NCBI GenBank assembly: GCA_938034385.1
Contig: CALHLC010000012.1
Span: 87,575 to 151,574 of the forward strand
Direction of reading: 5' to 3'
Source of the DNA: an uncultured Bacteriovoracaceae bacterium
Lineage (GTDB): Bacteria > Bdellovibrionota > Bacteriovoracia > Bacteriovoracales > Bacteriovoracaceae
Length of the DNA stretch: 64,000 nucleotides
Below are positions 3,682 through 63,644 of the stretch, piece after piece. The position numbers and the translations under genes are program-made. Numbering within the stretch: the stretch's first letter is position 1; every line of letters begins with the position of its first letter. Under the pieces are notes generated by a model. The model made no database searches. It had not been told where the DNA came from and was given only the letters and a program-made list of their open reading frames with translations.

Positions 3682-3727
3682 TTTTTGGCCTATCCTTAAT
3701 AGGGCAACTTATTTAAGGAATTAGCTT

Positions 3728-4342: not shown

Positions 4343-5508
4343 TGGTTTTTTTGTACACTAGTGAAGTTGTCTCGGTTATGAAATTTATACATTAGATATC
4401 CTGAAATACCTCCAGCAAGGTGAGATAGATGAGATACATTTGTAGCACCAGGAATTTCAAAGAAAATGAACATGATTACTTCTTTAGCAATATAGTAAAT
4501 AAATAAAAATTTTGCACTTATATGTATCCAGGCAATAGGAGAGCGACTGATGATTTTAAAAATCACTAAGGGACCCCAGAATGGTAAAGTCGAAAAACCA
4601 ATTTTCGTATTTGGATTATCAAGAGCGTAAAATACCAAACAAGCAAAAACAAAGCCACTTAAACCAACTAATGGAATTTCGGTATTATTAAAAATAATGT
4701 TAACCATTCCTACAAGCAAACAGGTGAAAATAAAAAAAACTGTATAGTTTTTAGGACCAAGCGTTTCTTCTACATCATCAGAAAAGACATAGAAGAAAAT
4801 AAGGTTACCAAAAAGATGACCTAGGCCGCCATGCATAAAGGCATGAGTAAAAAAATTAAGACCTAAATTATTAAATGGATGTGCACTTACAAAACCTAAG
4901 GTTTCAATAAAAGATTGATAATTTGAATAAGATAAGATTAGGACGAGAATACAAATAAAAGTAATAGAATAAGTTAGAAGTGGCTGCGTAAAGTTATATG
5001 GATCTTCTATCTCTATAGGAAAACCGCAATGACCTAAGATTCTTTCTATATCATTAGCTGGTCCTGCTCCCCACCACGAGCTTTTTTCATTCTTAAGCCT
5101 TTCTTGATCAAGAGCATTTTTAGTCTGCAATGCAACGACTTCACTAACTCTTGAGGTATCTCCAAATTGAGACAAGAAATCATTTACTTTAGGAATATTG
5201 GGAAATGCATTATTTTCAAACCAAAATAAATGGCAAGCACAACAGACATCCATCTCTTTAGTTCCTATCCAAGTAGGAGTTTCTACAAACTTCATATTTT
5301 TTCTACATTGTGGACATTGCTTACTTGAAACTTCCTTTGATAATCGTGCTCTATACCAAATCTCTTGAGTTTCATGAGTTCCAATAAGGTGCCTAGAAAT
5401 TGTTCTTGTCATTAATCGGCCCAGAGAATCACTGGAGAACCAAATAGGTTGGTTTTTTATAGTTGCTCTCTTGAGAGGTAAATTTGTATGTGGACAATAA
5501 AACTTCAT
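4339..5508 (-). CDS. rhomboid family intramembrane serine protease with N-terminal zinc-ribbon
   Basis: Rhomboid motifs HGGLGHLFGN, GLSGFVFA (GxSG) and HLAGGISGY. The N-terminus has CPQC..(n)..CCACHLFWFE, a TFIIB-type zinc ribbon. Confidence 0.8.
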   Translation of the reverse strand: MKFYCPHTNLPLKRATIKNQPIWFSSDSLGRLMTRTISRHLIGTHETQEIWYRARLSKEVSSKQCPQCRKNMKFVETPTWIGTKEMDVCCACHLFWFENNAFPNIPKVNDFLSQFGDTSRVSEVVALQTKNALDQERLKNEKSSWWGAGPANDIERILGHCGFPIEIEDPYNFTQPLLTYSITFICILVLILSYSNYQSFIETLGFVSAHPFNNLGLNFFTHAFMHGGLGHLFGNLIFFYVFSDDVEETLGPKNYTVFFIFTCLLVGMVNIIFNNTEIPLVGLSGFVFACLVFYALDNPNTKIGFSTLPFWGPLVIFKIISRSPIAWIHISAKFLFIYYIAKEVIMFIFFEIPGATNVSHLSHLAGGISGYLMYKFHNRDNFTSVQKNH

Positions 5509-5641
5509 TTATTTGATCTTAGTCAAAAATAAAATTTATTACAAATAAGAGATAAAATATTTATATTTTCTTGACGAAACTTTAAATTTTTCATTTCCTC
5601 TTATTATTATATTTTAACCTTTATCAAAAACGAGTAGAGAA

Positions 5642-50359: not shown

Positions 50360-51165
50360 TTAAGTGATTATTTCAATCATGCGATTTTCTTGACCATTAT
50401 CTCCGGAATATTCAACAACTTTAGCTTGATTTGTTTGTGGGATAGGTGGTGGCTCAATTTTAAGTGATTTTTCTTGTTCTTTCTTTTCTCTTGAGATTTT
50501 TTTCTGAATTTTAAAAGGGTCATCAAGAAAATATTCTCTTACAGTATCAATTTTTATACTGTTTGCTTTCGTCATCGGAATTCCTTCTGCTTTTGCCATC
50601 TCTTTTTTCATTTCCAAAATTTCTTTTGAGATACTTCCAGTAGAAGTATTGGCAATCCTTGCACTTTCCCGGGAACTAATTCCTTTTATAAAAAGTTGCC
50701 TTATGAGTGTACTTGGACGAGTCTTTTTCCTTCCTAAAACACGACCTTCAGCTTTTACTCTTGCAAGGCCGGCAATTACTCGCTCTCTTATTAAATCGCG
50801 TTCTAACTGCGATAAAGCCCCAACTACAGCAACAAGAGCTTGCCCGATTGCTGTGTTTGTATCAATCTGCTCAGATAAGCTAACAAGAGAGCACTTATTT
50901 GACCTCATTGTTTCAAGGCATCTGAGGAGATGGGAACAAGATCTTGAAATTCTAGAAAAAGAGAATGTGGTTACTTGAATTATTCTCCCGTTCCTTATTT
51001 CGTCCATCATTTGATCTAGTGCTGGCCTCGAATCTTTTGCTCCGGATATTGCTGTATCTTTGAAAACTTTGTAGTTACTAATTTCGTTGTCACGATAATA
51101 TTTTTCAATAGACCTAATCTGACTTTCCATACCCCCTTGCTGAAAATTAGTACTCACTCTTACGT
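50360..51165 (-). pseudogene. resolvase/invertase-type serine recombinase, 5' end severed by RIT insertion
   Basis: The body has resolvase blocks (..SGAKDSRPALDQMM.., SRISRS, ALSQLERDLIRERV) and a C-terminal HTH. The frame reads stop-AQHNVRVSTNFQQ, so the first beta-strand and the start codon are missing here. They are found at 54343-54364. Confidence 0.8.
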
Positions 51166-51215: not shown

Positions 51216-51307
51216 TCAATATGTAAATAATGGACGAATTTTTTGCTGGCTCTCCATTTTAACTAAAAATCGCTCTACATATCATTTACTTAAGAAAGGA
51301 GTAAGTG

Positions 51308-52291
51308 ATGATAAGAGAGGTTGTTACAGATCAGGAAAGGGAGTTTTTCTATGCTAGAAAAAAGCTCCCAAAGCTTTACACTGATTATTTAGATTATTGC
51401 AGGAAAATAAAAAACCTAGCAATAGGTACTATCCAAAATAGAAAGAGACATGTTCTTTCATTTATTTTAGAACACCCAAATAAAGCTTCAGCTTCTAAGG
51501 TTAATAAAATAACACAAGAAGAAATCCAAGAGTATGTCGTAAAAGCGGCGACAAATCTCTCAAGAGAAATGAAAAGAAGTCTTGTCGTTTCCCTTAGAGA
51601 TTTTTTTAGGTTTCTTCACTTAAAAGAGTACACTGAGCTTGATTTGTCTCATTCAGTACCTACGATTACAACTTATAGAATGTCTCGAATCCCACGAACA
51701 ATGCCCTGGGAAACGGTTGAGTTAATTTTAAAAACCATTAATAAAAAAACGTTATCTGGAAAAAGAGATTACGCTATCATTCTTGTATTTGCTCGATACG
51801 GTATAAGAGCATGCCAACTTAGAGAGCTTCGATTGAAAGATATTGATTGGGATAAAAAAACAATAAGATTTTTAGCAATCAAAGGTGGAAATGAAATTAC
51901 TTCACCTCTATTTGATGATGTTGCAAAAGCAATTCTTGCTTATTTTAAAGCTGGGAGAATGAAAGCTTCTGATAAATATGATCATGTGTTTTTAACTTCA
52001 GGGGAATGGGGAAGCAAAGTTATGGGGCAAGTGCCCTTAAGAGAGTCAACCTGGAATATTGTGAGCAGGGCCCTGAAAAAAGCGAAACAACAAGGCTTAA
52101 TTAATCATGCTCAGGGACCTCATGCGATTAGACATGCTTTTGCAACAAAGCTTCTGGATAAAGATACTCCTCTCAAAAATATCTCAGATATGCTTGGCCA
52201 TCGATCTTTAGAGACAACTTTTATTTATACAAAGACCAGCTTAAAGCAAATGAGAAAGTTAACACTAAGATGGCCAGGAAGTTCTCTATGA
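51308..52291 (+). CDS. tyrosine recombinase, RIT subunit A
   Basis: AIRHAFATKLL (HxxR) and GHRSLETTFIYT (Y). An SD precedes the ATG at 51308. Confidence 0.85.
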   Translation: MIREVVTDQEREFFYARKKLPKLYTDYLDYCRKIKNLAIGTIQNRKRHVLSFILEHPNKASASKVNKITQEEIQEYVVKAATNLSREMKRSLVVSLRDFFRFLHLKEYTELDLSHSVPTITTYRMSRIPRTMPWETVELILKTINKKTLSGKRDYAIILVFARYGIRACQLRELRLKDIDWDKKTIRFLAIKGGNEITSPLFDDVAKAILAYFKAGRMKASDKYDHVFLTSGEWGSKVMGQVPLRESTWNIVSRALKKAKQQGLINHAQGPHAIRHAFATKLLDKDTPLKNISDMLGHRSLETTFIYTKTSLKQMRKLTLRWPGSSL

Positions 52292-53262
52292 AAAAGATAG
52301 ATCAAAAGTGGCCTGGGCACCTCGGTGAGCTTATGAAAAAGCATATGGATATGAGAAGAGCTATTGGAAGGGTTGGAACAGCTGATGCTTATACTCTTTA
52401 TAACTTTAATAATTTTTTAATCGAAAATTATCCAAAAATTAAAGTTCCAAATAGAATGGCTATTCTTCACTACATGAAAACTTACTCACACTTAAGTGTT
52501 GGAGGACGTAGAAATAAACTCATTTATATTCGCCAGTTTTGTTTATTCTTAAACCAGCGAGGGATAGAGTGTTATGTTCCTGATAAAACTTTAATTCCAA
52601 AGTATACTTATGAACCTCGATATTATCCTCTTAATGAAAAACAAATCATTCAAATAATGAATCTCATTGAAAATTATAAGAATCACCATAACAAAAAATA
52701 TACAGGGAGAATGTACTCAACCTTTATTGGACTTCTCTGGGCCACGGGACTACGCTCAGGTGAAGCATGCAGGCTAAAGCATGAAGACATTGACCTTGAA
52801 GAAGGATTGATCTTAGTTAAGCAAACCAAGTTCTTTAAAGACAGAATTATTCCAATTTCTAAGACATCAATAGAGGCACTAAAGGATCATTTATCCCTAA
52901 AAGAATCTTTAGGTTTGAATACATCTTCAGATTCATCTTTTTTTCTAAACTCTCAAGGAAGACCACTTTCCGCTCATACTGTTGGCTCAATGTTTGGAAG
53001 GTTTGTGAGAAGAATGAAGATAAAAAAGATCAATGGAAGATATCCTGTTTTACATGACTTGAGACATAACTTTGCAACTCAGTGGATTCATCGTTTTTAC
53101 AAAGATACTGCCAAATATCCTCCCCAATCTTATGTCCCAAAGTTATCGACATATTTAGGTCATACAACGTTATTTTCTAGCCAGTATTATATTCATCCAG
53201 ATTTTGACCTTCTTCAAAGTGCATCTAAAAATTTTAACTTAGAGGATTTATATGAAAAATAA
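52270..53262 (+). CDS. tyrosine recombinase, RIT subunit B
   Basis: GLRSGEACRL (R), LHDLRHNFATQ and GHTTLFSSQYYIH. Overlaps the previous gene by 22 nt. Confidence 0.85.
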   Translation: MARKFSMKKIDQKWPGHLGELMKKHMDMRRAIGRVGTADAYTLYNFNNFLIENYPKIKVPNRMAILHYMKTYSHLSVGGRRNKLIYIRQFCLFLNQRGIECYVPDKTLIPKYTYEPRYYPLNEKQIIQIMNLIENYKNHHNKKYTGRMYSTFIGLLWATGLRSGEACRLKHEDIDLEEGLILVKQTKFFKDRIIPISKTSIEALKDHLSLKESLGLNTSSDSSFFLNSQGRPLSAHTVGSMFGRFVRRMKIKKINGRYPVLHDLRHNFATQWIHRFYKDTAKYPPQSYVPKLSTYLGHTTLFSSQYYIHPDFDLLQSASKNFNLEDLYEK

Positions 53263-54232
53263 TTTAATGCTTCTAACTCAAAACTTTTTCCAAAAATACT
53301 TACCAAACGAAAGAGGCTTTAGTCAGCATACTGTTTACTCTTATCGAGATACACTTAAGGTTTATTTTAGTTTTTTATCTCAAAAAAACAAAAAGCCTAA
53401 GCTTGACGATATGACGGCCCAAAATGTTATCAATTTTTTAGATTTTTTAAAAAGCACTAGAAATAACTCAGTTAAGACACAAAACCAAAGACTGGCTGTT
53501 CTAAAATGCTTCTATGAGTATTTACGTGCTCACGACCCGATAAGATCTAATCAATATAGTCGAATTGAACATATAAAAATGAAGAGAGCTCCTAGAAGGC
53601 CGATTGAGTACTTTGACAAAGAAGAGGTTAAAGCAATATTAGATTCAGTCGATCGAGGTAGTCGCAATGGTGATAGAGACTATGCTTTGTTAAAGCTTCT
53701 TTATAATAGTGGTGCTCGTGTTCAAGAGCTTTGTGACTTACGAGTTAGAGATATCAGAGCATATCCACCTTACCTTGTTGAGCTAACAGGAAAAGGAAGG
53801 AAAACGAGAAAGGTCCCATTATGGAAAGATACTGTTCTTTCGCTCGAGTCACTAATAAAGGGGCGAGATAGTTTAGCCCCTGTTTTTTGTTATCAGGAAA
53901 AGCCACTTGGCAGGTTTGGAGTTCGATACATCGTCAAAAAGCATTGCAAGAAAGCATCACAACAACAGATCAGTTTGCAAGGCAAGAAGATTGGTCCTCA
54001 TACTTTTAGGCATACAACGGCAATGCACCTTCTTCAAAGCGGAACAGACATCAGTGTTATAAAAACTTGGTTAGGGCATGTCGATCTTAATACGACTCAT
54101 GGATACATTGAAATTGACCTTGAGATGAAAAGAAAGGCAATGAATAAGATAAGTAAAGTTGCTTCTAAAAACACAGAAAATCTTTTAAAGAAAAATAAAG
54201 ATATTGTCAGTTGGTTATCTAATTTTAAATAA
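53252..54232 (+). CDS. tyrosine recombinase, RIT subunit C
   Basis: GARVQELCDL (R), PHTFRHTTAMHLL and GHVDLNTTHGYIE. Overlaps the previous gene by 11 nt. Confidence 0.85.
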   Translation: MKNNLMLLTQNFFQKYLPNERGFSQHTVYSYRDTLKVYFSFLSQKNKKPKLDDMTAQNVINFLDFLKSTRNNSVKTQNQRLAVLKCFYEYLRAHDPIRSNQYSRIEHIKMKRAPRRPIEYFDKEEVKAILDSVDRGSRNGDRDYALLKLLYNSGARVQELCDLRVRDIRAYPPYLVELTGKGRKTRKVPLWKDTVLSLESLIKGRDSLAPVFCYQEKPLGRFGVRYIVKKHCKKASQQQISLQGKKIGPHTFRHTTAMHLLQSGTDISVIKTWLGHVDLNTTHGYIEIDLEMKRKAMNKISKVASKNTENLLKKNKDIVSWLSNFK

Positions 54233-54342: not shown

Positions 54343-54364
54343 AGCTTGCATGATATCTGTTCAT
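54343..54364 (-). pseudogene. orphaned 5' fragment (MNRYHAS..) of the serine recombinase gene
   Basis: The ATG at 54364 overlaps the stop of the upstream HTH gene (TAATG). Joining it across the 7-bp repeat gives MNRYHASYVRVSTNFQQ in frame. Confidence 0.75.
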
Positions 54365-54912
54365 TAATCCTCCGTTTTTGTGGGATTAAGTTTTGTTATT
54401 AGTTTTATAATCCCTTCATAGAGTGGTGAAATGGAAACCTGAGTGGAAACCGTTTCCACTTGGTTTCCATTTTTACACTTATTAGAGAGGTAGTTTTTTT
54501 CAATGAAAAATTTTAAATTTTCTATCGCTCTGTTTCTTATCTTGGAGACAGCTGTGTGTGAAATTTTTAATTCCTTAGCAAGCTGTCTCATTGAAAGATT
54601 CCCGAAGTATAAACCGGTAATAACAGTTTTTTGCTTAGGACAAAGACTTTGAATACTTTTATCTAAAATTTCTTTGAAGTGAATATACTCTTTGTCTGTT
54701 TCGATATTTTGAAATAGAGTTGAAATTTGTATCTTCTCAGCTCTATCATCGAAGTATTCTTCATTATGAATTTGTCGCTCTTTTTGGTTGATCTCAATAG
54801 TTTTTAAATACCGTTCCCAAGTTTCTGGGTTCCAAGTTTTTACGGCTTCTTTTAGATCTGTATCTGAAAGTGCTTGCCCTTTTTCATCTAACCACGGAAA
54901 TTCTTTGTTCAT
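54364..54912 (-). CDS. sigma-70 region-4-like HTH protein
   Basis: The ATG at 54912 has an AAGGAG SD. QKTVITGLYFGNLSMRQLAKELKISHTAVSKIRNRAIENL is an r4-type HTH. Confidence 0.5.
   Translation of the reverse strand: MNKEFPWLDEKGQALSDTDLKEAVKTWNPETWERYLKTIEINQKERQIHNEEYFDDRAEKIQISTLFQNIETDKEYIHFKEILDKSIQSLCPKQKTVITGLYFGNLSMRQLAKELKISHTAVSKIRNRAIENLKFFIEKNYLSNKCKNGNQVETVSTQVSISPLYEGIIKLITKLNPTKTED
54432..54470. repeat. GGAAAC/GTTTCC four-half-site dyad, copy B
   Basis: TGGAAACCTGAGTGGAAACCGTTTCCACTTGGTTTCCAT, a near-perfect palindrome inside the 3' end of the HTH gene and about 70 bp upstream of the recombinase ATG. Confidence 0.7.
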
Positions 54913-55048: not shown

Positions 55049-55082
55049 ATCAATATTGATTTGACTTCGTATCAAAATTGAT
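55049..55082. promoter_or_regulatory. twin palindromic operator-like sites ATCAA-NN-TTGAT
   Basis: ATCAATATTGAT (55049-55060) and ATCAAAATTGAT (55071-55082). Their centres are 22 bp apart, and they lie 32 bp upstream of the operon start. Confidence 0.45.
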
Positions 55083-55113: not shown

Positions 55114-56475
55114 ATGTCGTTAGACGTTTTGTTAATTGAAGACAATCCTCATACTGCTCTTAATTTTCAAGAGATGTTTGAGGATGAGGACTATGGACAC
55201 AGAGTTTCAGTGGCAAAATCCACGACAGTGGCAAAGTCACTTATTCAAAAAAGAAACTTTGATATTGCTTTTGTTGATCTTGATCTCGAAAAGAAAAGAG
55301 CAGGCTTTGATGTTGTACCACTTTTAAAAGATAAAAAAGTTTATACAGTTATCCTTTCTGGTCATGATGAAGATGAGTATGTTGAAAAAGGCTATGGACT
55401 CAATTGTAACGCTTATTTAACTAAACCTTATGATTTAGAGCAAATCGAAAATATTTTCACGACTCTGGATCGCCATAATGAATTTATTCTTTCTTACAGA
55501 GAGTTATTGAAGACAGATTATTTAACTCGAAATGAATTTACTCTCAAAGAGCTGAAGAAAGCAGAAAACTATTTATTAAGAGATGATATTAAGTTGTTTA
55601 TCTCAGGTGAAACGGGTGTCGGAAAAACGGCATTATCGAAAGTTCTTCACTTGGCTCAGTTCAAAAACTTTAATAACTATGTTCATGTAAACTGTGCCCA
55701 AATAGAAAGTACTCTTCTCAAGTCTGAATTATTTGGAGCTAAAAAAGGATCACACTCTGAGGCAAAAACTGATAAAGCAGGGCTGATTGTTGGAGCTAAT
55801 GGAGGAACTCTTCATTTGGATGAAATCGCCTGTTTAGACCTTGAAGCTCAGGCAATGCTTCTAACTTTTCTCGATACAGGAATCGTTCAACCCCTTGGTG
55901 GTGAAAAGAAAGATGAAGTAAAGATCAAGACTAAGATTATTTGTTCGACGAACGAAAGCTTAGAAAAAATGATTCAAGAGAAGAAGTTTAGAGAAGATCT
56001 TTATCATCGAATTATGGGAAAAGTGCTAGAAGTACCATCTTTAAAAGAAAGACCTGAAGATGTGAAGCTTTTTGTTGATCTTGAGATTGAAAAATTAAAT
56101 AGGAAAAAAGTATTTCGATTCAGTAAAGCTGCAAGAGAAAAACTCTATGCATATAACTGGTATGGAAACATTAGAGAGCTAAAAGAATACTTTAAAGGAA
56201 TTTCTGATGGGAAGGGATTTCTTAATGTCTCTGATTTACCTGCTTGGATTGTTAATAACTTTAATAAAAATAATATTCCAACAAGGTCTGTCCTAACTGA
56301 TGAGCAGATCGCTTATGTCCAAGATAATGGACTAAATAAATTTTTAGAAAAAATCTCATCTGAGGTGATTGAGCACTTTTATCACAAGAATGGACGCAAG
56401 TTTAATAGAACTAAGAATGAACTGGGAATAACTCAGTACAATTTAAAAAAGTATCTTGAGGGTCATTCAAAATGA
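55114..56475 (+). CDS. NtrC-family response regulator (REC + AAA+ + Fis-type HTH) with degenerate GAFTGA
   Basis: REC (FVDLDL, LTKP). Walker A GETGVGKT and Walker B GGTLHLDEI. ELFGAKKGSHSEA replaces ELFGHEKGAFTGA. C-terminal HTH NELGITQYNLKKYL. Confidence 0.8.
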   Translation: MSLDVLLIEDNPHTALNFQEMFEDEDYGHRVSVAKSTTVAKSLIQKRNFDIAFVDLDLEKKRAGFDVVPLLKDKKVYTVILSGHDEDEYVEKGYGLNCNAYLTKPYDLEQIENIFTTLDRHNEFILSYRELLKTDYLTRNEFTLKELKKAENYLLRDDIKLFISGETGVGKTALSKVLHLAQFKNFNNYVHVNCAQIESTLLKSELFGAKKGSHSEAKTDKAGLIVGANGGTLHLDEIACLDLEAQAMLLTFLDTGIVQPLGGEKKDEVKIKTKIICSTNESLEKMIQEKKFREDLYHRIMGKVLEVPSLKERPEDVKLFVDLEIEKLNRKKVFRFSKAAREKLYAYNWYGNIRELKEYFKGISDGKGFLNVSDLPAWIVNNFNKNNIPTRSVLTDEQIAYVQDNGLNKFLEKISSEVIEHFYHKNGRKFNRTKNELGITQYNLKKYLEGHSK

Positions 56476-56720
56476 GTAAAAATTTGTATGAATCACAAGA
56501 TATCAAAGAGATTAGAGAAAGTTTACATTGGCTTTCGACTAGAATTCAAGATTTGAATACAACGAACTTACTGGTTAGAAAATATTTAGGGCGTGAGGAT
56601 AAAGAAGATTTTTGTAAGAAAAGCTTGGATGCCTCTTTAGAGGCCAGAGAACGAATGACTAAAGAGTTAAAAAATATAAGATCAAAATTGAAGGTATTAA
56701 GAGAGTACAAAGATGTTTAA
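56472..56720 (+). CDS. small coiled-coil protein
   Basis: 82 aa with an ATGA overlap upstream and an 8-nt overlap downstream. Confidence 0.4.
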   Translation: MSKNLYESQDIKEIRESLHWLSTRIQDLNTTNLLVRKYLGREDKEDFCKKSLDASLEARERMTKELKNIRSKLKVLREYKDV

Positions 56721-58191
56721 GTTTTTTGTCACTCTCATGTTCACTCTTTCTTCTCTACATGTTTTTGGAAACAGCGATATTATGCTAATTCCTGTTAAAG
56801 AGATTCCTAAGAAAATCGACTCTTTTTACGGAAATGATTTAACTCTTAATAAAATTATCAATCAATTAGCAGAAGGGCTTGTTAAACTTGATGATTCGCT
56901 TTATCCAAGGCCTGCAGTAGCAAAATCTTGGAAAATTGATGAAAGAAATAAGAGTATCGAATTTAGTTTAGATACAGGCAAAAAGTTTCACGATGGTTCA
57001 ACAGTTAAAAGCATTGATGTTTTTAATGTGCTCCAACAAAGCTTGGCTAAGAAAAGTGATTTAACTAGCCAGATATCAGAATTTGAAAGCTGTAAAACAA
57101 TGAGAAAATGCGAAGGTTTTAGTGAGATTGATCAAAAAAGCTTCAAACTAAAATTAAATGATACAAACTTTATTGGTTTTTTGAGAAAGCTCTCAAATAT
57201 AGAGGGAGTCATATTCAAGAGAGATAGTTCTCGATTCATTGGAACTGGGCCTTATAAGCTAGAGAAATTAACAAAATCTCAGGTTGTCTTGAATCGAGTA
57301 AGTAAATCATATTTCAAAAAAATTATATTCAAGAAAATGAACGATAAGGATGCTCTAAAGTCTTTTTTAGCTGGGAAGGTCGATTTTATAAGTGATAGCG
57401 ATTTTAAGGTTTCAAAATCTGACTTAAACAATCCTTTAGTTAAGGAAGAAAATACGGTTCTTACTTTTGGGTTAGTCTTTAACTTAAAGAAAGGAGTTTT
57501 CAAATCGAAGCATAATAGAAAAGTGCTATCAGTGGCAATTGATAAAGAAAAACTCGTTAAGCTCTATTCTCACCCTGCGATTGTCGCTAATGGATTAATA
57601 CCAAAAGGTTTTCAAGGACATGTTCGTAATACTGAAAAGAGTAAAGGTTTTGGAAGATTAAAGCTCTATGGATCAAAGAAAGTTATCTTTGGATTAAGGC
57701 ACAAGTACAAAGGGAATAAAGCAATTACAGATTATCTCCCGAGAGTCATGAAGTCTTTGGGCTTAGATGTGAAAGTTGTCTTTGATGATTTTGGAGCAAT
57801 TTTAAAAGATTTAAAGAAGCCTAGTGGGAAGTATCATCTTACGATCAAGGGTGAGGCCCCTCGATACTTTGATTCCGCTTCTGTATTTCGTCCTTACGTT
57901 TATGGTCAATTTCCAAACGTAACTAATTATAAGAACGATGAGTTCACTAAGCTTTATTTTGATTCTGAAAGCTTGCTCGGAAAAAAGAAACTTATGGCCC
58001 TTGGTAGAATGGAAGAAATTCTTAGAGAAGAGGTTCCAGTTATCCCTCTTTTTCATCCTGTTTTTACGAAGTGGTATCAAAGTTCAATGAATATCAATAA
58101 AGATTTGAAATCCTCAATAAAGTTTTGGGATTTTCCGTTTTATTCCTACTCAAGGAATAAAATTAACACTGAAAAAGGAGGTCGACTATGA
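56713..58191 (+). CDS. family-5 (peptide/nickel) ABC substrate-binding protein, orphan
   Basis: Signal peptide and the GTGPYKLEK signature of SBP_bac_5. No ABC permease or ATPase genes are in the operon. Confidence 0.75.
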   Translation: MFKFFVTLMFTLSSLHVFGNSDIMLIPVKEIPKKIDSFYGNDLTLNKIINQLAEGLVKLDDSLYPRPAVAKSWKIDERNKSIEFSLDTGKKFHDGSTVKSIDVFNVLQQSLAKKSDLTSQISEFESCKTMRKCEGFSEIDQKSFKLKLNDTNFIGFLRKLSNIEGVIFKRDSSRFIGTGPYKLEKLTKSQVVLNRVSKSYFKKIIFKKMNDKDALKSFLAGKVDFISDSDFKVSKSDLNNPLVKEENTVLTFGLVFNLKKGVFKSKHNRKVLSVAIDKEKLVKLYSHPAIVANGLIPKGFQGHVRNTEKSKGFGRLKLYGSKKVIFGLRHKYKGNKAITDYLPRVMKSLGLDVKVVFDDFGAILKDLKKPSGKYHLTIKGEAPRYFDSASVFRPYVYGQFPNVTNYKNDEFTKLYFDSESLLGKKKLMALGRMEEILREEVPVIPLFHPVFTKWYQSSMNINKDLKSSIKFWDFPFYSYSRNKINTEKGGRL

Positions 58192-58286
58192 CTACACTTG
58201 AGCAGAATGAACAGTTGGAAGATGTGATTATTAATCTGGACATCTTCGATGATGAAATTATGTCTGAGGCTAGAGTCAGCGCATAA
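58188..58286 (+). CDS. 32-aa acidic peptide (candidate precursor/signal peptide): MTTLEQNEQLEDVIINLDIFDDEIMSEARVSA
   Basis: Below the ORF-track size cutoff. AAAGGAGG SD 6 nt upstream of the ATG. ATGA overlap with the SBP stop. Ends 8 nt before the HExxH gene. Confidence 0.55.
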   Translation: MTTLEQNEQLEDVIINLDIFDDEIMSEARVSA

Positions 58287-58294
58287 TTGAGGCA

Positions 58295-59149
58295 ATGATG
58301 AAAATGGAAGCAATGTTTAATATTGTACTTGTAGAACGTTTTATCGCTTCTATACGGAAGAGGGGGGAGATTTCTCTCCCTTCTTCTCTTTCATCCAAAA
58401 ATGTAGAAACAATGAGTACTCCTTTCTTGGCTTGGATTTTTTCGCAGAGAAAAAACGATATTGATCTTAAAATCATTCAAAAAACCTATGAACTTGATCA
58501 AAAAAGATCTAATTTTGTTGTTGGACATAGTATTTTTGAAGATCAAAATACTTCGAATTACCCAGAGCTTGAAGAAAAGTATCTTAAGGCAAGAAAAATC
58601 ATCAAATCCTATTGGCCTGAGTTAGACTGTTTGATCGAAGCAATTGGTCCAAGAGTATCCTTTCTGCCAAATGATAGTTTAACGTATGAGTCTTCGTCTG
58701 ATCCTAAAACATTTGGAGAGATTATCTTCAATATGGAGCATCCTTGTGTTTTAAGATGGGTTGAAATTCTTACCCATGAAATTGGGCACATGTACCTTAA
58801 TATTCTATTGGCCACAAGCCATATGACTCCTGAAAACAAATCTAAATTAGCAAAGAGGAAATTCTCTAATATTAGACAAGAGGAAAGACCTCTTATTGGT
58901 ATTGTCCATGGTGTTTTTGTTCAGGCATGGATGATGATAATGGCTGCAAAAGTTATTCAAGGAAGTAATTACAACGATGATCATATTGGAGCCGTTAGAA
59001 CTATTGATCGTTTTAAGAAATCTTTCTTAGAAGATTATAGGACAATATACGATGAAGGTCTGAGCGATATTGTAACGGGGTTTTCTAGCTTTGTTGACCA
59101 AGGATTCAATTTTTTGAAAGAGACAGAGGAGGTACTTTGTGAAGTCTAA
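58295..59149 (+). CDS. HExxH-motif peptide-modification-type protein
   Basis: The THEIGHMYLN HExxH motif is followed by ..RQEERPLIGIVHGVFVQAW... This resembles the TIGR04267 / alpha-KG-HExxH family pattern (HExxH ... RP..G..H). No signal peptide. Confidence 0.55.
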   Translation: MMKMEAMFNIVLVERFIASIRKRGEISLPSSLSSKNVETMSTPFLAWIFSQRKNDIDLKIIQKTYELDQKRSNFVVGHSIFEDQNTSNYPELEEKYLKARKIIKSYWPELDCLIEAIGPRVSFLPNDSLTYESSSDPKTFGEIIFNMEHPCVLRWVEILTHEIGHMYLNILLATSHMTPENKSKLAKRKFSNIRQEERPLIGIVHGVFVQAWMMIMAAKVIQGSNYNDDHIGAVRTIDRFKKSFLEDYRTIYDEGLSDIVTGFSSFVDQGFNFLKETEEVLCEV

Positions 59150-60404
59150 CTCTGTCATAAAAAGTCTTGGTATCTATTATGCTCTAAACGCATCGGCTGT
59201 TCAGTTTAACTCGATTGTTTTTCGAGTGGTTGTTGGTTTTTTAGTTGGGGCTCCGCTTAAAGCAGTAGCTTATATCACCTGTATTGAATATCTCCTGAAC
59301 TTTATTTTAGAAGTACCTACTGGGAGAATTGCTGACAAGTATGGTCGAATTCCTATGGCCATTATAGGTCATGTTTCGGTGATTCTTGGCTTGAGTTGTG
59401 GTTACGTTGCTGCCAGCGGTTTTATTAACGATGAAAATACAATACACATTTTTTATATGTTGCATGGAGTTTTTATCGGATTTTGTCGCCCTTTGATCTC
59501 TGGATCTATTGATGGGTTTTATAAAGATGCGATGAAGAGAAAAGGTGAAAGTGAAGCTGACCTCGGTTTTTCCATTAGTAGCAAATATGGAAGGTATCTT
59601 ACAACGATCTATATCACTTTGGCTTTTATTGTTTTGATTGTTTTTGATCAAACGCTTGGGGCTCAACATGCTTTTGTTCCAGGGATATTACTTTGGGTAA
59701 TGACAACTCATCGCTTATATAAGGATTACTTGAGCTTTGGGGATTCCTCTATAAAAACGGAAACACCTATTAAGAAAATCTTTCAAGTTTTTAAGCAGAA
59801 TAGAAATATTCTAGTTTCGACTTATTATAATTTTGCTCAGTGGGTAATTAAGTATCTTGTCTTTGGGTATTTTTTGGTAACTTTTGGACGAGAGTTTGCT
59901 GGACAATCAAAAAGTTTACAGTGGATGACGATGATTGCCTTTATGCTTGGTTCACAAGGTTTTGGGTGGATTTTAAAATCGGTAGTTATCCCTAAAATGA
60001 TTTATAAAATGAGCGAAAAACAATATTTAACTACTTTTTTAGCGGCAAGCTTTTTCGCTGGGTTGCTAGGCCTTAGTACACTTGATACTTCTAATCTTTC
60101 GGTGAACTTTACTGTAGCTGTTTTTATTTTTGGAATGTTCACTTTTGCAGCAATGTCTGCTGTAGAAAGATATTCTAAGGATAAATTAACAAAAGAGGTC
60201 GCTTCGACTGATTATGCGATGTTTTTAAGTATCCAAAATATGCCAGGTTATACTTTCGTTGTGCTTCATGGGTTGTATTATATTTTCTTGGGAACGGGGA
60301 CACCGAGCTTGAATGAAATATTTTCTCAGGTCGCTATCACTTCGATTATGTTCATTATTGGGGTTTATATTCTTGATAAGAGTAAAGAGAGAGGTGCAGT
60401 ATGA
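59139..60404 (+). CDS. MFS transporter
   Basis: About 12 TM helices, MFS motif A-like PTGRIADKYGR and a GTG start overlapping the upstream gene. Confidence 0.75.
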   Translation: MKSNSVIKSLGIYYALNASAVQFNSIVFRVVVGFLVGAPLKAVAYITCIEYLLNFILEVPTGRIADKYGRIPMAIIGHVSVILGLSCGYVAASGFINDENTIHIFYMLHGVFIGFCRPLISGSIDGFYKDAMKRKGESEADLGFSISSKYGRYLTTIYITLAFIVLIVFDQTLGAQHAFVPGILLWVMTTHRLYKDYLSFGDSSIKTETPIKKIFQVFKQNRNILVSTYYNFAQWVIKYLVFGYFLVTFGREFAGQSKSLQWMTMIAFMLGSQGFGWILKSVVIPKMIYKMSEKQYLTTFLAASFFAGLLGLSTLDTSNLSVNFTVAVFIFGMFTFAAMSAVERYSKDKLTKEVASTDYAMFLSIQNMPGYTFVVLHGLYYIFLGTGTPSLNEIFSQVAITSIMFIIGVYILDKSKERGAV

Positions 60405-61939
60405 AAAAGCATTTCTCAAAACAGGTTCTTTTTTATTCATTAGTTTTATTTACTGTTGTCTTGGTAATTAACTTCTCATTTTTATTCTGGATGCACCAAA
60501 AGGCAGAATCTAATAAGTTTGATCTTTTGACCAAGCAGCTTGGAGCAGGAATTAGGCCCCATGTTGCCTCACAGGTAGAAATAGCAGTGAGATCACAACT
60601 AAAAAACATTCTGAATGAGCCTACAGTGCTTGCGATTCAGGTAGATTCAGATAACTTTCAAATTCTTGAAGAAAAAGAACATTTCAACGAAAAAAGTAGT
60701 GGGATTTTATCTGACTACCTTTGGGCCAGTGGTACATTTCCTACGTATGAAAACTCTAACGAAAAATTCTCTGTAAAAGTTGCTTATGAGAATAGTTTAG
60801 CTAGAAAAACTCTCTTTGATGCACTTGGATTATCAGGTTTGCTCTTATTTTTAATAGGGTTCGTTTATTGGCTATTTGTTTCTAGGGTTGTAACAAAGGA
60901 AACTTTGGAGATTGAAAAAAGTAACATGGCGAAGAGAATTTTTCATGTACTCAAGTCTGAATTTATTCCTTTGATCAATCTTGAGGATGAGAAGCACTTC
61001 CAAAGGTTTTCAAATAAGAAGAAGAGGTTAATGCGACTTAGCTTTTATCAGAGAATTTTGGGCAGTATAAGCAAGTTTGTTACTTTTGATGGAGCTGAAT
61101 ATCACTCCCTTGAAAAATATGAAATTATTAAGCTTGAGAAATTTCTCAAAGAATTTGTAGAAGCTAAAAGAATTGAGCATGTGAAGAGGAATATCAAGAT
61201 TACTGTTTCTAAAATGGTTAAAGATTACTCAGTAAAAACCGTTTCAAGTGAGCTATGGCAAGCGTTATCAAATTTGGTCAATAATTCTTATGAAGCAATT
61301 AAAGAGAGTGGAAGTATTGAAATCTCTGTAAGTGAAGTCGATAAAGATTTAATCGAAATCATTGTCAAAGATGATGGTAAGGGAATTCCTAAAGACCAGT
61401 TAGACCAAATATTAACTGAAGGTTATTCTTATGAAAAAAGTAATGGAAATGGAATTGGCTTACCTCAATCCATAAATAAAATAAGAAGCTTGGGAGGAGA
61501 GTTAATAATTGATTCTGAAGAAGGTGTAGGAACAAAAGTTTCAATCACTTTGATTAAAGAAAATGATAATAATCTAAGCAAAGACAGGGTTGATCTTATT
61601 TTGATCGACGATGCTTTAAATAGAAGAATTAACGCTGAAGAGATGGCAGAGGAAAGTGGGTATTCGATGCTGTCTTTCGAGAGTTATGACTCTTGTCTTG
61701 AGTACCTCAAGAGTAATCCCTTAGACTCATCAACACCCATCTTTGGTGACTCTGAAATGTGTGATGGAAAAGCTAAAGGAGAAATGAGATCAAAGGATCT
61801 CTACGATATGGGATATAAAAATATAGCTATAGTTACTGGTGCCGAATCGGTTGAAATTAGTAAGATGGGTGAGTTACCTTGGATATCCAGAGTGATTTCT
61901 AAGAACAGCATTGGCTCTGACTACACGGAGTTGATGTGA
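60401..61939 (+). CDS. hybrid sensor histidine kinase (2 TM + HATPase + C-terminal REC-like)
   Basis: Two TM helices flank a periplasmic loop of about 120 aa. H-box-like FHVLKSEFIPL, N-box NLVNNSYEAI, G1 DDGKGIP and G2 GNGIGL. The C-terminus DLILIDD...GDSEM...VTGA...ISK is REC-like. Confidence 0.75.
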   Translation: MKKHFSKQVLFYSLVLFTVVLVINFSFLFWMHQKAESNKFDLLTKQLGAGIRPHVASQVEIAVRSQLKNILNEPTVLAIQVDSDNFQILEEKEHFNEKSSGILSDYLWASGTFPTYENSNEKFSVKVAYENSLARKTLFDALGLSGLLLFLIGFVYWLFVSRVVTKETLEIEKSNMAKRIFHVLKSEFIPLINLEDEKHFQRFSNKKKRLMRLSFYQRILGSISKFVTFDGAEYHSLEKYEIIKLEKFLKEFVEAKRIEHVKRNIKITVSKMVKDYSVKTVSSELWQALSNLVNNSYEAIKESGSIEISVSEVDKDLIEIIVKDDGKGIPKDQLDQILTEGYSYEKSNGNGIGLPQSINKIRSLGGELIIDSEEGVGTKVSITLIKENDNNLSKDRVDLILIDDALNRRINAEEMAEESGYSMLSFESYDSCLEYLKSNPLDSSTPIFGDSEMCDGKAKGEMRSKDLYDMGYKNIAIVTGAESVEISKMGELPWISRVISKNSIGSDYTELM

Positions 61940-62529
61940 GAGTTGAGCTTAGAGACTGGAAAAAAAAAGATCTCAATTTATATACGGAATGGTCTAAGCC
62001 GGGGCATAAATGGCAAGAGTTTGATGGACCTTATTATAAAAGGTCTTTTGAAAAGTTAGAAAGCAATATTGCCAAGTTAGAAGAAAAAATAATAAATCAA
62101 GGGTTCTCTTATCCTAGAGCTAGACAAGTTATTTCTTTGAAGGAAACCGATGATTTTATTGGAACTGTGAGCTGTTATTGGGAATCAATTGAAACAAATT
62201 GGTTGTGTGCAGGCATAAGTTTATATGATGAAAAATATTGGGGTAAAGGGCTTGGTTATGAAGCCTTGGGTTTATGGGTTGACTATCTCTTTGAAAGCTA
62301 TCCTGACATTATCAGACTCGACCTAAGAACTTGGTCTGGAAATATGGGGATGATTAAACTTGCAGAGAAACTTGGTTTTAAATTGGAAGCGAGGTTCAGA
62401 AAAGCAAGGATAGTCAATGGCGAGTACTTTGACAGCCTTGGGTACGGAGTACTTAAAGATGAATGGTTAGATAGTTTCCCTGAAGGGTTCGCTGGTTTAA
62501 TTTCAGACAAAGGAAGATTAAAAAAATGA
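61936..62529 (+). CDS. RimJ/RimL-type GNAT N-acetyltransferase
   Basis: Acetyltransf_3-like layout with WGKGLGYEAL. GTGA overlap with the kinase gene. Confidence 0.65.
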   Translation: MRVELRDWKKKDLNLYTEWSKPGHKWQEFDGPYYKRSFEKLESNIAKLEEKIINQGFSYPRARQVISLKETDDFIGTVSCYWESIETNWLCAGISLYDEKYWGKGLGYEALGLWVDYLFESYPDIIRLDLRTWSGNMGMIKLAEKLGFKLEARFRKARIVNGEYFDSLGYGVLKDEWLDSFPEGFAGLISDKGRLKK

Positions 62530-62918
62530 TTAAATACTCTTTTTCAAAACCAGATACAGATGAAACTTTACAGCTTTATAAAGAGTCAGGTATCTACAAT
62601 GAACAGTGGAATAGAGACAGGATGGATAAAACTCTTGAAAACTCCGATATCCTTCTTTGTTGTTATGATGATAAAAAGCTTATTGGAATTGCTAGAGGCA
62701 TAACAGATTTTCACTGGATTGCTCATTTATCACACCTTGCAGTTCATCCTGATTATCAAAGACAGGGATTTGGTAAAAAGCTTGTTCAGATGGTGAATGA
62801 AAAACTTGGAGATGGGGTTGCCCTGATGGTTCATTCCGTGCCTGAAGCAAAAAATTTTTATCAAGGCTTAGGTTTCGAGCCTTATGATGATGTTTATCGA
62901 ATACCTAGGAAGATATGA
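62526..62918 (+). CDS. GNAT N-acetyltransferase
   Basis: Motif A VHPDYQRQGFGKKLV. ATGA overlap. Confidence 0.7.
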   Translation: MIKYSFSKPDTDETLQLYKESGIYNEQWNRDRMDKTLENSDILLCCYDDKKLIGIARGITDFHWIAHLSHLAVHPDYQRQGFGKKLVQMVNEKLGDGVALMVHSVPEAKNFYQGLGFEPYDDVYRIPRKI

Positions 62919-62948
62919 TTGAATACTTAGCTTTAGGAGTTCTTATTG

Positions 62949-63644
62949 ATGGATAAACATATATTAGCAATGGGCGGCGGTGGATTTTCAATGGAGCCAG
63001 ACAACTTAAAGCTCGATAAGTATTTATTGTCTTTAGTAAAAAAAGATAAGCCTAAAGTATGTTTTGTTAGTACTGCTAGTGGAGATTCAAAAGAGTACAT
63101 TGAAAGGTTTTATAATTCCTTTTCTAATCTTCTATGCGAACCCAGTAATTTGGCTTTATACAGACCTCCAGAAGAAGATCTTCGAGAGTTTGTTATGGAT
63201 AAAGATATATTTTATGTTGGTGGTGGAAATACTCGAAACCTTCTTGTCCTATGGAAAGAATGGGGCTTGGATTTATTATTAAAAGAGGCTTTGGAAAAAG
63301 GAGCAGTCCTCGCAGGAATTAGTGCTGGGTCTATTTGCTGGTTTGATCAAGGATTAACTGATTCGGTAACAGGAAAGCTACTTCCTTTAAGCTGTCTAGG
63401 TATTTTAAAAGGTAGTAATTGCCCACATTACCATGGAGAAGAAAAAAGAAGACCGTCATATCAGAAATCGATTTTAAATGGCTCGATGAAAGATGGTATA
63501 GCCTGTGATGATGGAGTTGCTGCACACTTTATAAATGGAGAGCTAAGTAAGTTTGTATCGTCCAGAAAGGGTGCAAATGCGTACAAAGTGGAATTAACGG
63601 AAATCGGCATATTAGAGACTAGAATAAAGCCTGAACTTCTGTAA
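62949..63644 (+). CDS. S51 family peptidase (PepE/cyanophycinase-like)
   Basis: ILAMGGGGF N-terminus, nucleophile block LAGISAGSICWF and a His near CPHYH. Confidence 0.65.
   Translation: MDKHILAMGGGGFSMEPDNLKLDKYLLSLVKKDKPKVCFVSTASGDSKEYIERFYNSFSNLLCEPSNLALYRPPEEDLREFVMDKDIFYVGGGNTRNLLVLWKEWGLDLLLKEALEKGAVLAGISAGSICWFDQGLTDSVTGKLLPLSCLGILKGSNCPHYHGEEKRRPSYQKSILNGSMKDGIACDDGVAAHFINGELSKFVSSRKGANAYKVELTEIGILETRIKPELL

Follow-up and report, generated by a model that had tools for sequence, protein, structure and literature searches.

Enzymes of the HExxH type that depend on iron and alpha-ketoglutarate (aKG-HExxH enzymes) have been known as oxygenases only since 2024, and the characterised ones all act together with further tailoring enzymes, on long or pre-cyclised substrates. 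Morishita et al. (2024), as cited in PMC12636437, described "metalloprotease-like" proteins as iron/alpha-ketoglutarate (Fe/aKG) oxygenases that beta-hydroxylate Asp and His in a peptide made by ribosomes and modified after translation (a RiPP). BpmH is the aKG-HExxH enzyme of the biphenomycin pathway (PMC12257519), PesO hydroxylates Pro (PMC13060819), and PflC/PosC hydroxylate several Gln, oxidatively remove a C-terminal ARMD motif and can act as peptidases, all of this near the C-terminus only (PMC12636437). Across the family, the known reactions are beta-hydroxylations at Asp, His, Phe, Gln and Pro residues, and C-terminal motifs are acted upon as well (PMC12636437, PMC13060819). The Morishita-type, BpmH, PflC/PosC and PesO systems are all accompanied by other tailoring enzymes. 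For sensing, AioX-AioS-AioR sets a precedent for a chain from a solute-binding protein (SBP) via a histidine kinase to a regulator (PMC5908839, PMC7565993). Here we analyse a short open reading frame (ORF) directly upstream of a gene for an aKG-HExxH-type enzyme, encoded next to an SBP, a transporter and a histidine kinase, on a stretch of 64,000 nucleotides (the window) of contig CALHLC010000012.1 from an uncultured Bacteriovoracaceae bacterium. No paper on this cassette or on the peptide was found in the literature.

A conserved peptide ORF in front of the HExxH gene

The following elements of the window, in window coordinates, are central to the analysis:

58174-58181, plus strand: Shine-Dalgarno sequence AAAGGAGG, with a spacer of 6 nt (TCGACT) to the ATG.
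58188-58286, plus strand: putative precursor-peptide gene, ATG at 58188 and TAA at 58284-58286, encoding the 32 amino acids MTTLEQNEQLEDVIINLDIFDDEIMSEARVSA; assigned from the translation and the homologues.
58230-58283, plus strand: residues 15-32 of the peptide, forming its conserved C-terminal block, INLDIFDDEIMSEARVSA; from alignments A4 and A7.
58298-59149, plus strand: predicted aKG-HExxH-type peptide hydroxylase of 283 amino acids (284 when started at 58295), HExxH motif H160-E161-x-x-H164; TIGR04267.

The ORF had been singled out in an earlier reading made from the sequence alone (the sequence-only reading), and most of that description is directly visible in the window. A Shine-Dalgarno-type motif lies 6 nt upstream of the ATG, the ATG overlaps the stop codon of the upstream SBP gene (ATGA; SBP ORF 56713-58191), and the peptide carries a DIFDDE cluster and no Cys. 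The sequence AAGGAGG is found only eight times on both strands of the 64 kb. The distance of 8 nt between the end of the ORF and the HExxH gene is correct for an enzyme start at 58295, and becomes 11 nt for the ATG at 58298, which is the start used in public gene calls (283 amino acids). Other details had to be corrected: the peptide contains nine acidic residues (four Asp and five Glu) and not ten, the tail ARVSA, described as neutral, contains an Arg and is not strictly neutral, and the ORF was not untracked, as its exact 32-amino-acid product is already called as a gene in NCBI, Logan and ENA sources. When 11 peptide members were compared with the Pfam and NCBIfam models, no meaningful match was obtained, even up to E 10.

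Relatives of the locus were gathered by homology searches with the HExxH enzyme and by metagenome and genome scans, and the DNA upstream of the enzyme genes was inspected. The reference-genome scan gave one locus only, in a Bacteriovoracaceae metagenome-assembled genome (MAG; L004). Two entries are left out of the counts for the upstream region, L018 since it has no sequence 5' of the enzyme gene and P0033 since it has no contig. A homologous short ORF is located directly 5' of the HExxH gene on 16 of 16 non-redundant contigs that cover the region. These contigs encode 12 distinct peptide sequences, the G+C (GC) content of the loci ranges from 32 to 64%, and the identity of the enzymes to the window enzyme goes down to 27%. 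Conservation of the short ORF in syntenic loci, the check proposed in the sequence-only reading, has thus come out in favour of the peptide. In every homologue a ribosome-binding site of the GGAG/AGGA type precedes the ATG by 3-12 nt, and in several loci the peptide gene is present without a gene call. The distinct peptides are:

Window: MTTLEQNEQLEDVIINLDIFDDEIMSEARVSA
L010: MTDTKQIECEVLVSLEIFDDEIISESRASM
L011 and L009: MTDSEQIECEVLVSLEIFDDEIISESRASM
L012: MAQSNENVLVNTEIFDDEVIAESRASM
L013: MNASNQSVLINTDIFDDVIIAESRASM
L004 (Bacteriovoracaceae MAG): MNGENVDVLVNLDVLTDEVIGETRGSADW
L014: MENKDVQLKQETETQVRSFNLSILKDELMGEARASFHG
L015: MENQNVQLNEETGSAEVQTFNLSILKDELMGEARASFSG
L016: MKKSKKIGVKRRSFNLSILKNKVIGEIRGSFP
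L017, ending only: ...PFQLDAHLNRLLGEVRSSH
L019: MKTEQIKKVVKKQKKTKINMTVFTNKNLSERRASF
L005 (locus GC 64%): MFNLDVHEDVVFGEIRASF

Across the family the peptides are 19-49 amino acids long, with the version from L005 at 19 amino acids. They share the C-terminal consensus h-[N/S/Q]-x-x-h-x-x-[D/N]-x-h-h-[S/G/A]-E-x-R-x-S-h, which terminates at or near the stop codon. In alignment A7, Glu27, Arg29 and Ser31 (window numbering) are invariant, nine of the 12 distinct peptides have Asp and three have Asn at position 22, and the spacing of the hydrophobic residues is kept. Each locus contains a single copy of the strict form of the motif, [DN]-x-h-h-[SGA]-E-x-R-x-S, which lies on the operon strand just 5' of the enzyme gene and in every locus is positioned 1-3 codons before a stop; for a looser version, about 0.7 occurrences are expected per shuffled 64 kb. 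The part that precedes the block is variable, comprising 1-31 residues with a charge from acidic to basic. Most members are acidic peptides, and those of L016 and L019 are basic outside the block.

At the DNA level, substitutions at codon positions 1, 2 and 3 number 43, 28 and 63, respectively, so that position 2 is the most constrained, a pattern that indicates a coding frame. The antisense frame with the same wobble position was considered as the source of an artefact, as its raw identity (48%) is similar to that of the sense frame (47%). It was ruled out because no start codon covers the block in three of four loci and because the mismatches have a mean BLOSUM62 score of -0.75, compared to +0.32 in the sense frame. 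Judged from these comparisons, the 32-codon ORF is almost certainly a genuine protein-coding gene.

The closest locus, L002 (2782-2972, aligned to window 58140-58330), is 100% identical in DNA to the window over the peptide ORF together with the preceding 48 nt, and for this reason is uninformative for a comparison of synonymous and non-synonymous changes. For the enzyme that follows this identical DNA, protein identity drops to 88%, and a mosaic or recombination boundary seems to lie near the junction of peptide and enzyme genes.

The HExxH enzyme and its gene neighbourhood

For the window enzyme the only match among the Pfam and NCBIfam models is TIGR04267, "aKG-HExxH-type peptide beta-hydroxylase", with 43.5 bits at a cut-off of 40. 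The same model matches nine of nine clade members tested (best E 2e-14). Alignments A3 and A5 show H160, E161, H164, R197 and H204 without variation, and the HExxH motif is found in all full-length representatives of the clade. An AlphaFold2 model built from the clade alignment reached a predicted local distance difference test score (pLDDT) of 88.3 and a predicted template modelling score (pTM) of 0.88. In a Foldseek search with this model the top four matches were chains of 8s5f, the HExxH domain of ChlB (E 3e-7 to 1e-6, probability 1.0, template modelling score 0.66-0.68); SjiH followed with E 4e-3 and the remainder was noise. By hidden Markov model (HMM) match and by its predicted fold, the distinct zincin-like one of the ChlB domain, the window enzyme is assigned to the aKG-HExxH peptide beta-hydroxylase family (TIGR04267/IPR026337).

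HMMER, run exhaustively against 1.84 billion representatives, returned 34 proteins at E ≤ 1e-30, nearly all of them full-length with 260-285 amino acids. Below these, the matches cover the catalytic core only and represent other aKG-HExxH subfamilies, giving a total of 481 at E ≤ 1e-3. By this search the clade is small, rare and sharply bounded. In L014 the HExxH gene has an in-frame stop at about 3705-3710, on a low-coverage contig where an assembly error is possible.

Around the peptide and enzyme genes the window contains the following genes:

54364-54912, minus strand: sigma70-region-4-like helix-turn-helix protein, 182 amino acids, divergent to the cassette; Sigma70_r4 in the public call.
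55114-56475, plus strand: response regulator with a sigma54-interaction AAA+ domain; Pfam Response_reg and Sigma54_activat.
56472-56720, plus strand: small protein of 82 amino acids without a family match, conserved in position and sequence in five loci.
56713-58191, plus strand: periplasmic SBP of family 5 (peptide/nickel type), 492 amino acids; SBP_bac_5 with E 7e-35, N-terminal signal-like sequence.
59139-60404, plus strand: major facilitator superfamily (MFS) transporter, presumed to be an exporter; Pfam MFS_1.
60401-61939, plus strand: membrane sensor histidine kinase; HATPase_c.
61936-63644, plus strand: two GNAT acetyltransferases and an S51 (PepE/cyanophycinase-type) peptidase (S51 at 62946-63644), with overlapping or near-overlapping ends.

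The response regulator, SBP, HExxH enzyme, MFS transporter and histidine kinase are orthologous across loci, with 25-46% identity in tblastn comparisons. Wherever a locus has sequence 3' of the enzyme gene, an MFS orthologue follows it directly, the kinase gene follows the MFS gene in all nine loci with enough downstream sequence, and orthologues of the response regulator are present in L004, L010, L011, L012 and L014. The SBP gene adjoins the peptide gene in all loci, as a C-terminal remnant in L016 and on the opposite strand in L017, and the arrangement of the two genes varies from an overlap to a gap of 26 nt. From the gene comparisons, the conserved core consists of SBP, peptide, HExxH enzyme, MFS transporter and histidine kinase, usually together with the sigma54-type response regulator. 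No conserved ATP-binding cassette (ABC) permease or ATPase, protease or second modifying enzyme was found among the cassette loci. The SBP remnant of L016 lies at 4928-5608, and the peptide, enzyme, MFS and kinase genes are retained there; the loci L014 and L016 show signs of decay.

Homologues of the sigma70-region-4-like gene are found at the same position in L004, L010, L011 and L012. Only the window has the two GNAT genes and the S51 gene, which are absent from the other loci by tblastn. In the public record L001 they are followed by a gene for an APH-type kinase, which is likewise not in other loci. These genes might provide additional tailoring or resistance functions peculiar to this genome, or be unrelated to the cassette.

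The small protein encoded between the response regulator and SBP genes has 65-74 amino acids in the other loci; its His19 and Cys48 are invariant and lie in a helical context. No Pfam or NCBIfam model matches it. A CsoR-like identity was considered and rejected, as the sole similarity, to the CsoR-type copper regulator 3aai, is non-significant (E 0.04).

The DNA 5' of the cassette carries a serine resolvase gene (window 50360-51157, minus strand) and three consecutive overlapping Phage_integrase genes (51305-52291, 52270-53262 and 53252-54232), a recombinase-in-trio just 5' of the cassette. In L012, genes for TrbC and for SNF2-helicase/DUF1156 border the cassette. Mobile islands may be the carriers of the cassette.

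Proposed function and competing explanations

A short translated ORF linked to a modifying enzyme across taxa is what is expected for a RiPP precursor. The peptide very likely is a substrate, of the RiPP precursor type, of the adjacent stand-alone Fe(II)/alpha-ketoglutarate HExxH enzyme, and the peptides form a small, previously uncurated family. The sequence-only reading had proposed a RiPP precursor or a signalling pro-peptide, and both the conserved, enzyme-linked ORF and the HMM and fold family of the enzyme lend support to it. In the proposed mechanism the HExxH enzyme would beta-hydroxylate the peptide, most probably at the beta-carbon of Asp/Asn22. This residue is the most probable site because the family is known to target Asp and the alignment column admits only Asp or Asn; residue 22 (Asp22 in the window) is therefore the best candidate, with a probability that we place a little short of even. 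The restriction of position 22 to Asp and Asn fits the earlier remark, made from the sequence, on Asp hydroxylation.

The substrate and its catalyst might also be produced in different amounts. The top terminator-like site of the region is located shortly after the peptide gene:

58356-58387, plus strand: RNA hairpin with a stem of 14 bp, -23.3 kcal/mol, some 70 nt past the peptide stop and within the 5' end of the enzyme ORF.

A hairpin is found 40-100 nt past the peptide stop in 8 of 11 loci. In seven of these (window, L004, L012, L013, L014, L015 and L016) it lies within the first ~30 enzyme codons, and each of the seven is more stable than 40 of 40 controls in which the codons of the same protein were resampled synonymously. 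In L005 it is stronger (-31.4 kcal/mol, z -5.1), is situated in the spacer between peptide and enzyme genes and is followed by UUGUUUUU, a U-run. The hairpin is selected at the RNA level. It is a candidate attenuator or 3'-end stabiliser that would raise expression of the peptide relative to the enzyme and let the peptide transcript outnumber the enzyme transcript. An arrangement in which a hairpin favours expression of the peptide over the enzyme is familiar from RiPP operons, and such a ratio fits the relationship of a substrate to its catalyst.

For the further fate of the peptide we propose that the product, either full-length or trimmed by housekeeping peptidases, exits the cell via the MFS transporter, that the orphan SBP would bind the exported product in the periplasm, and that the SBP would then signal via the adjacent kinase to the sigma54-type regulator, giving an autoinducer-like circuit. 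Precursor, maturation enzyme, exporter, kinase and regulator are encoded together across loci, which is the gene content of a quorum-sensing system. By analogy with known systems, a sensing loop through SBP, kinase and regulator is possible, and we put it forward tentatively. The whole proposal, a modified-peptide RiPP autoinducer module of Gram-negative, Bacteriovoracaceae-type (predatory) bacteria, carried on mobile islands and constituting a new type of circuit with a leaderless or minimal-leader peptide, a single Asp/Asn beta-hydroxylation, MFS export and readback via SBP, kinase and sigma54, is speculative and in its entirety rather doubtful.

A number of observations weigh against this proposal. 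The peptides have no conserved leader, with a single residue before the block in L005, and only the C-terminal block is conserved; a conserved leader or follower apart from the core, as expected for RiPPs, was not found. No protease is part of the conserved cassette, and the architecture is atypical for a RiPP precursor. On the side of the enzyme, the margin of the TIGR04267 match in the window is narrow (43.5 versus 40 bits), a sequence search of the PDB with the enzyme profile gave no match, and no domain of the RiPP recognition element (RRE) type was detected in the enzyme with Pfam and NCBIfam. MFS transporters normally move small molecules and not peptides of 2-5 kDa. A significant hairpin was not found in L010, L017 and L019. 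With up to two mismatches, no sigma54 promoter of the -24/-12 type was found for the cassette of the window. The sigma54-contact loop of the window regulator (residues ~208-218) reads GSHSEA instead of GAFTGA, while the orthologues have GAFTGA (L010, L012), GSFTGA (L014) and GSYTGS (L004). Judging from this degenerate loop, sigma54 activation, and with it the signalling loop, may be impaired or rewired in the window genome.

Elsewhere, a sigma54-like sequence TGGCAT-N5-ATGCT is present in L010 and L011 at about 2661-2677 on the minus strand, pointing towards the sigma70-region-4-like gene and away from the cassette. The target of the regulator may be this divergent gene. In a scan for sigma70 promoters the hits did not exceed the frequency in shuffled sequence. 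Just 5' of the regulator gene of the window (55049-55082) lie two near-palindromes, ATCAATATTGAT (55049) and ATCAAAATTGAT (55071), 22 bp apart, which could be an operator. As a shared operator they were rejected, since the other loci show no conservation of them at the corresponding position.

Among the alternatives, the most probable one keeps the peptide as a precursor and changes its purpose: it would yield an exported bioactive or metal-binding product, such as an antibiotic or a beta-hydroxy-Asp metallophore, with the two-component system regulating only production or immunity and the NikA/Opp-like SBP recapturing the product or its metal complex. The best, weak NCBIfam matches of the SBP are indeed NikA and CntA, which bind nickel and opine-metal complexes, most of the peptides are acidic, and an MFS exporter suits a small final product. 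Pantocin A offers a parallel, as it is made from a 30-amino-acid precursor with a conserved central region and involves a Fe/2-oxoglutarate (Fe/2OG) oxygenase and a membrane exporter (PMC12250964). The 82-amino-acid protein with its invariant His and Cys has a faint CsoR-like match (E 0.04); however, this similarity is non-significant. Against such a product speak the lack of an ABC permease or ATPase beside the SBP in any locus and the basic character of the L016 and L019 peptides outside the block. In addition, strong conservation of the modified core fits signals or cofactors better than arms-race antibiotics, and the histidine kinase is strictly conserved (9/9 loci). We therefore consider such a product possible but unlikely.

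Less probable is that the HExxH protein acts as a peptidase or as an oxidative cleaver of the backbone, trimming the E-x-R-x-S-x tail (leaving, for example, a C-terminal amide) or the variable N-terminus. The stand-alone enzymes PflC and PosC remove the C-terminal ARMD oxidatively, PflC also hydrolyses peptides, and only motifs near the C-terminus are affected (PMC12636437). The block with its invariant x-R-x-S likewise lies at the extreme C-terminus, and the cassette has no separate conserved protease. Yet the invariant Arg is preceded by A, S, T, I, V or R, not consistently by a small residue as PflC/PosC cleavage requires, the peptides have neither a Gln run nor an ARMD motif, and hydroxylation is documented for every characterised member of the family, which makes cleavage as the main activity improbable. 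That the ORF arose by chance, or is a regulatory upstream ORF that merely couples SBP and enzyme expression, might be suggested by its very short length, its overlap with the SBP stop (ATGA), the 8-11 nt to the next gene and the similar raw identity of the antisense frame (48% vs 47%), but is hardly credible in view of the conservative, amino-acid-level conservation over 32-64% GC and down to 27% enzyme identity, the invariant E, R and S with a stop position fixed relative to the motif, the persistence of the peptide while the coupling geometry varies (overlap to 26 nt; SBP on the other strand in L017), and the lack of usable starts in the antisense frame.

Significance and comparison with known systems

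A sole modifying enzyme together with a peptide of 19-49 amino acids that carries a clearly delimited, presumed recognition and modification block of 18 residues represents a minimal and tractable system for the study of substrate recognition. The peptides are a new precursor family for genome-mining tools, which now miss it, and a clade as rare as this one (~34 representatives in 1.84 billion proteins) would escape notice without a targeted look. The strict link to an orphan SBP, an exporter and a kinase points to a peptide signal in a group of bacteria that includes the Bacteriovoracaceae MAG and for which signalling of this kind is essentially unexplored.

The enzyme belongs to the same family (TIGR04267/IPR026337) as ChlBH (triceptide), BpmH (biphenomycin), PflC/PosC and PesO (nitrilobacillin) and is predicted to share the fold of 8s5f. 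As in the other aKG-HExxH RiPP systems, its gene lies beside that of a short ribosomal peptide; the predicted modified region is near the C-terminus of the peptide, as in PflA and PosA, and the cassette lacks a dedicated protease, as does the pfl cluster. Unlike in those RiPP systems, however, the HExxH enzyme is the sole conserved modifier, without a radical-SAM, MNIO, nitroreductase or Asn-synthetase partner, the peptide has neither a cyclophane motif nor an NHLP-type leader but a variable or almost absent N-terminal region, and an orphan SBP, an MFS transporter and a histidine kinase are firmly built into the cassette. The peptides also differ from the PflA/PosA substrates in that they have no C-terminal Gln run with ARMD and no long NHLP-like leader (PMC12636437).

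With respect to signalling, the locus resembles Agr (AgrD/B/C/A) and ComQXPA in combining precursor, modifying enzyme, exporter, histidine kinase and response regulator. It differs from Agr/ComQX in that the proteins are not homologous, the modification would be a Fe/aKG oxidation, the host lineage includes the Gram-negative Bacteriovoracaceae, and no autoregulated promoter was identified. LuxP-LuxQ-LuxO is another two-component sensing system that depends on an SBP. This part of the cassette resembles AioXSR, where an SBP without a cognate ABC transporter is likewise encoded beside a kinase and a sigma54-type regulator (PMC5908839, PMC7565993).

Pantocin A (PaaP/PaaA/PaaB/PaaC) shares a precursor of about 30 amino acids whose acidic core is conserved and whose flanks vary more, a Fe/2OG oxygenase, a membrane exporter of the small-molecule type and the lack of a dedicated protease (PMC12250964). 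In contrast to pantocin A, the present cassette contains no ThiF-like enzyme, an HExxH fold instead of a cupin-type 2OG oxygenase, an MFS instead of an EamA exporter, a C-terminal instead of a central block, and in addition an SBP and a kinase. The peptide stands outside the curated precursor families, and the cassette differs from all characterised aKG-HExxH systems in three respects: the single-enzyme architecture, the C-terminal block with a minimal leader, and the obligate link to an SBP, an exporter and a sensor kinase.

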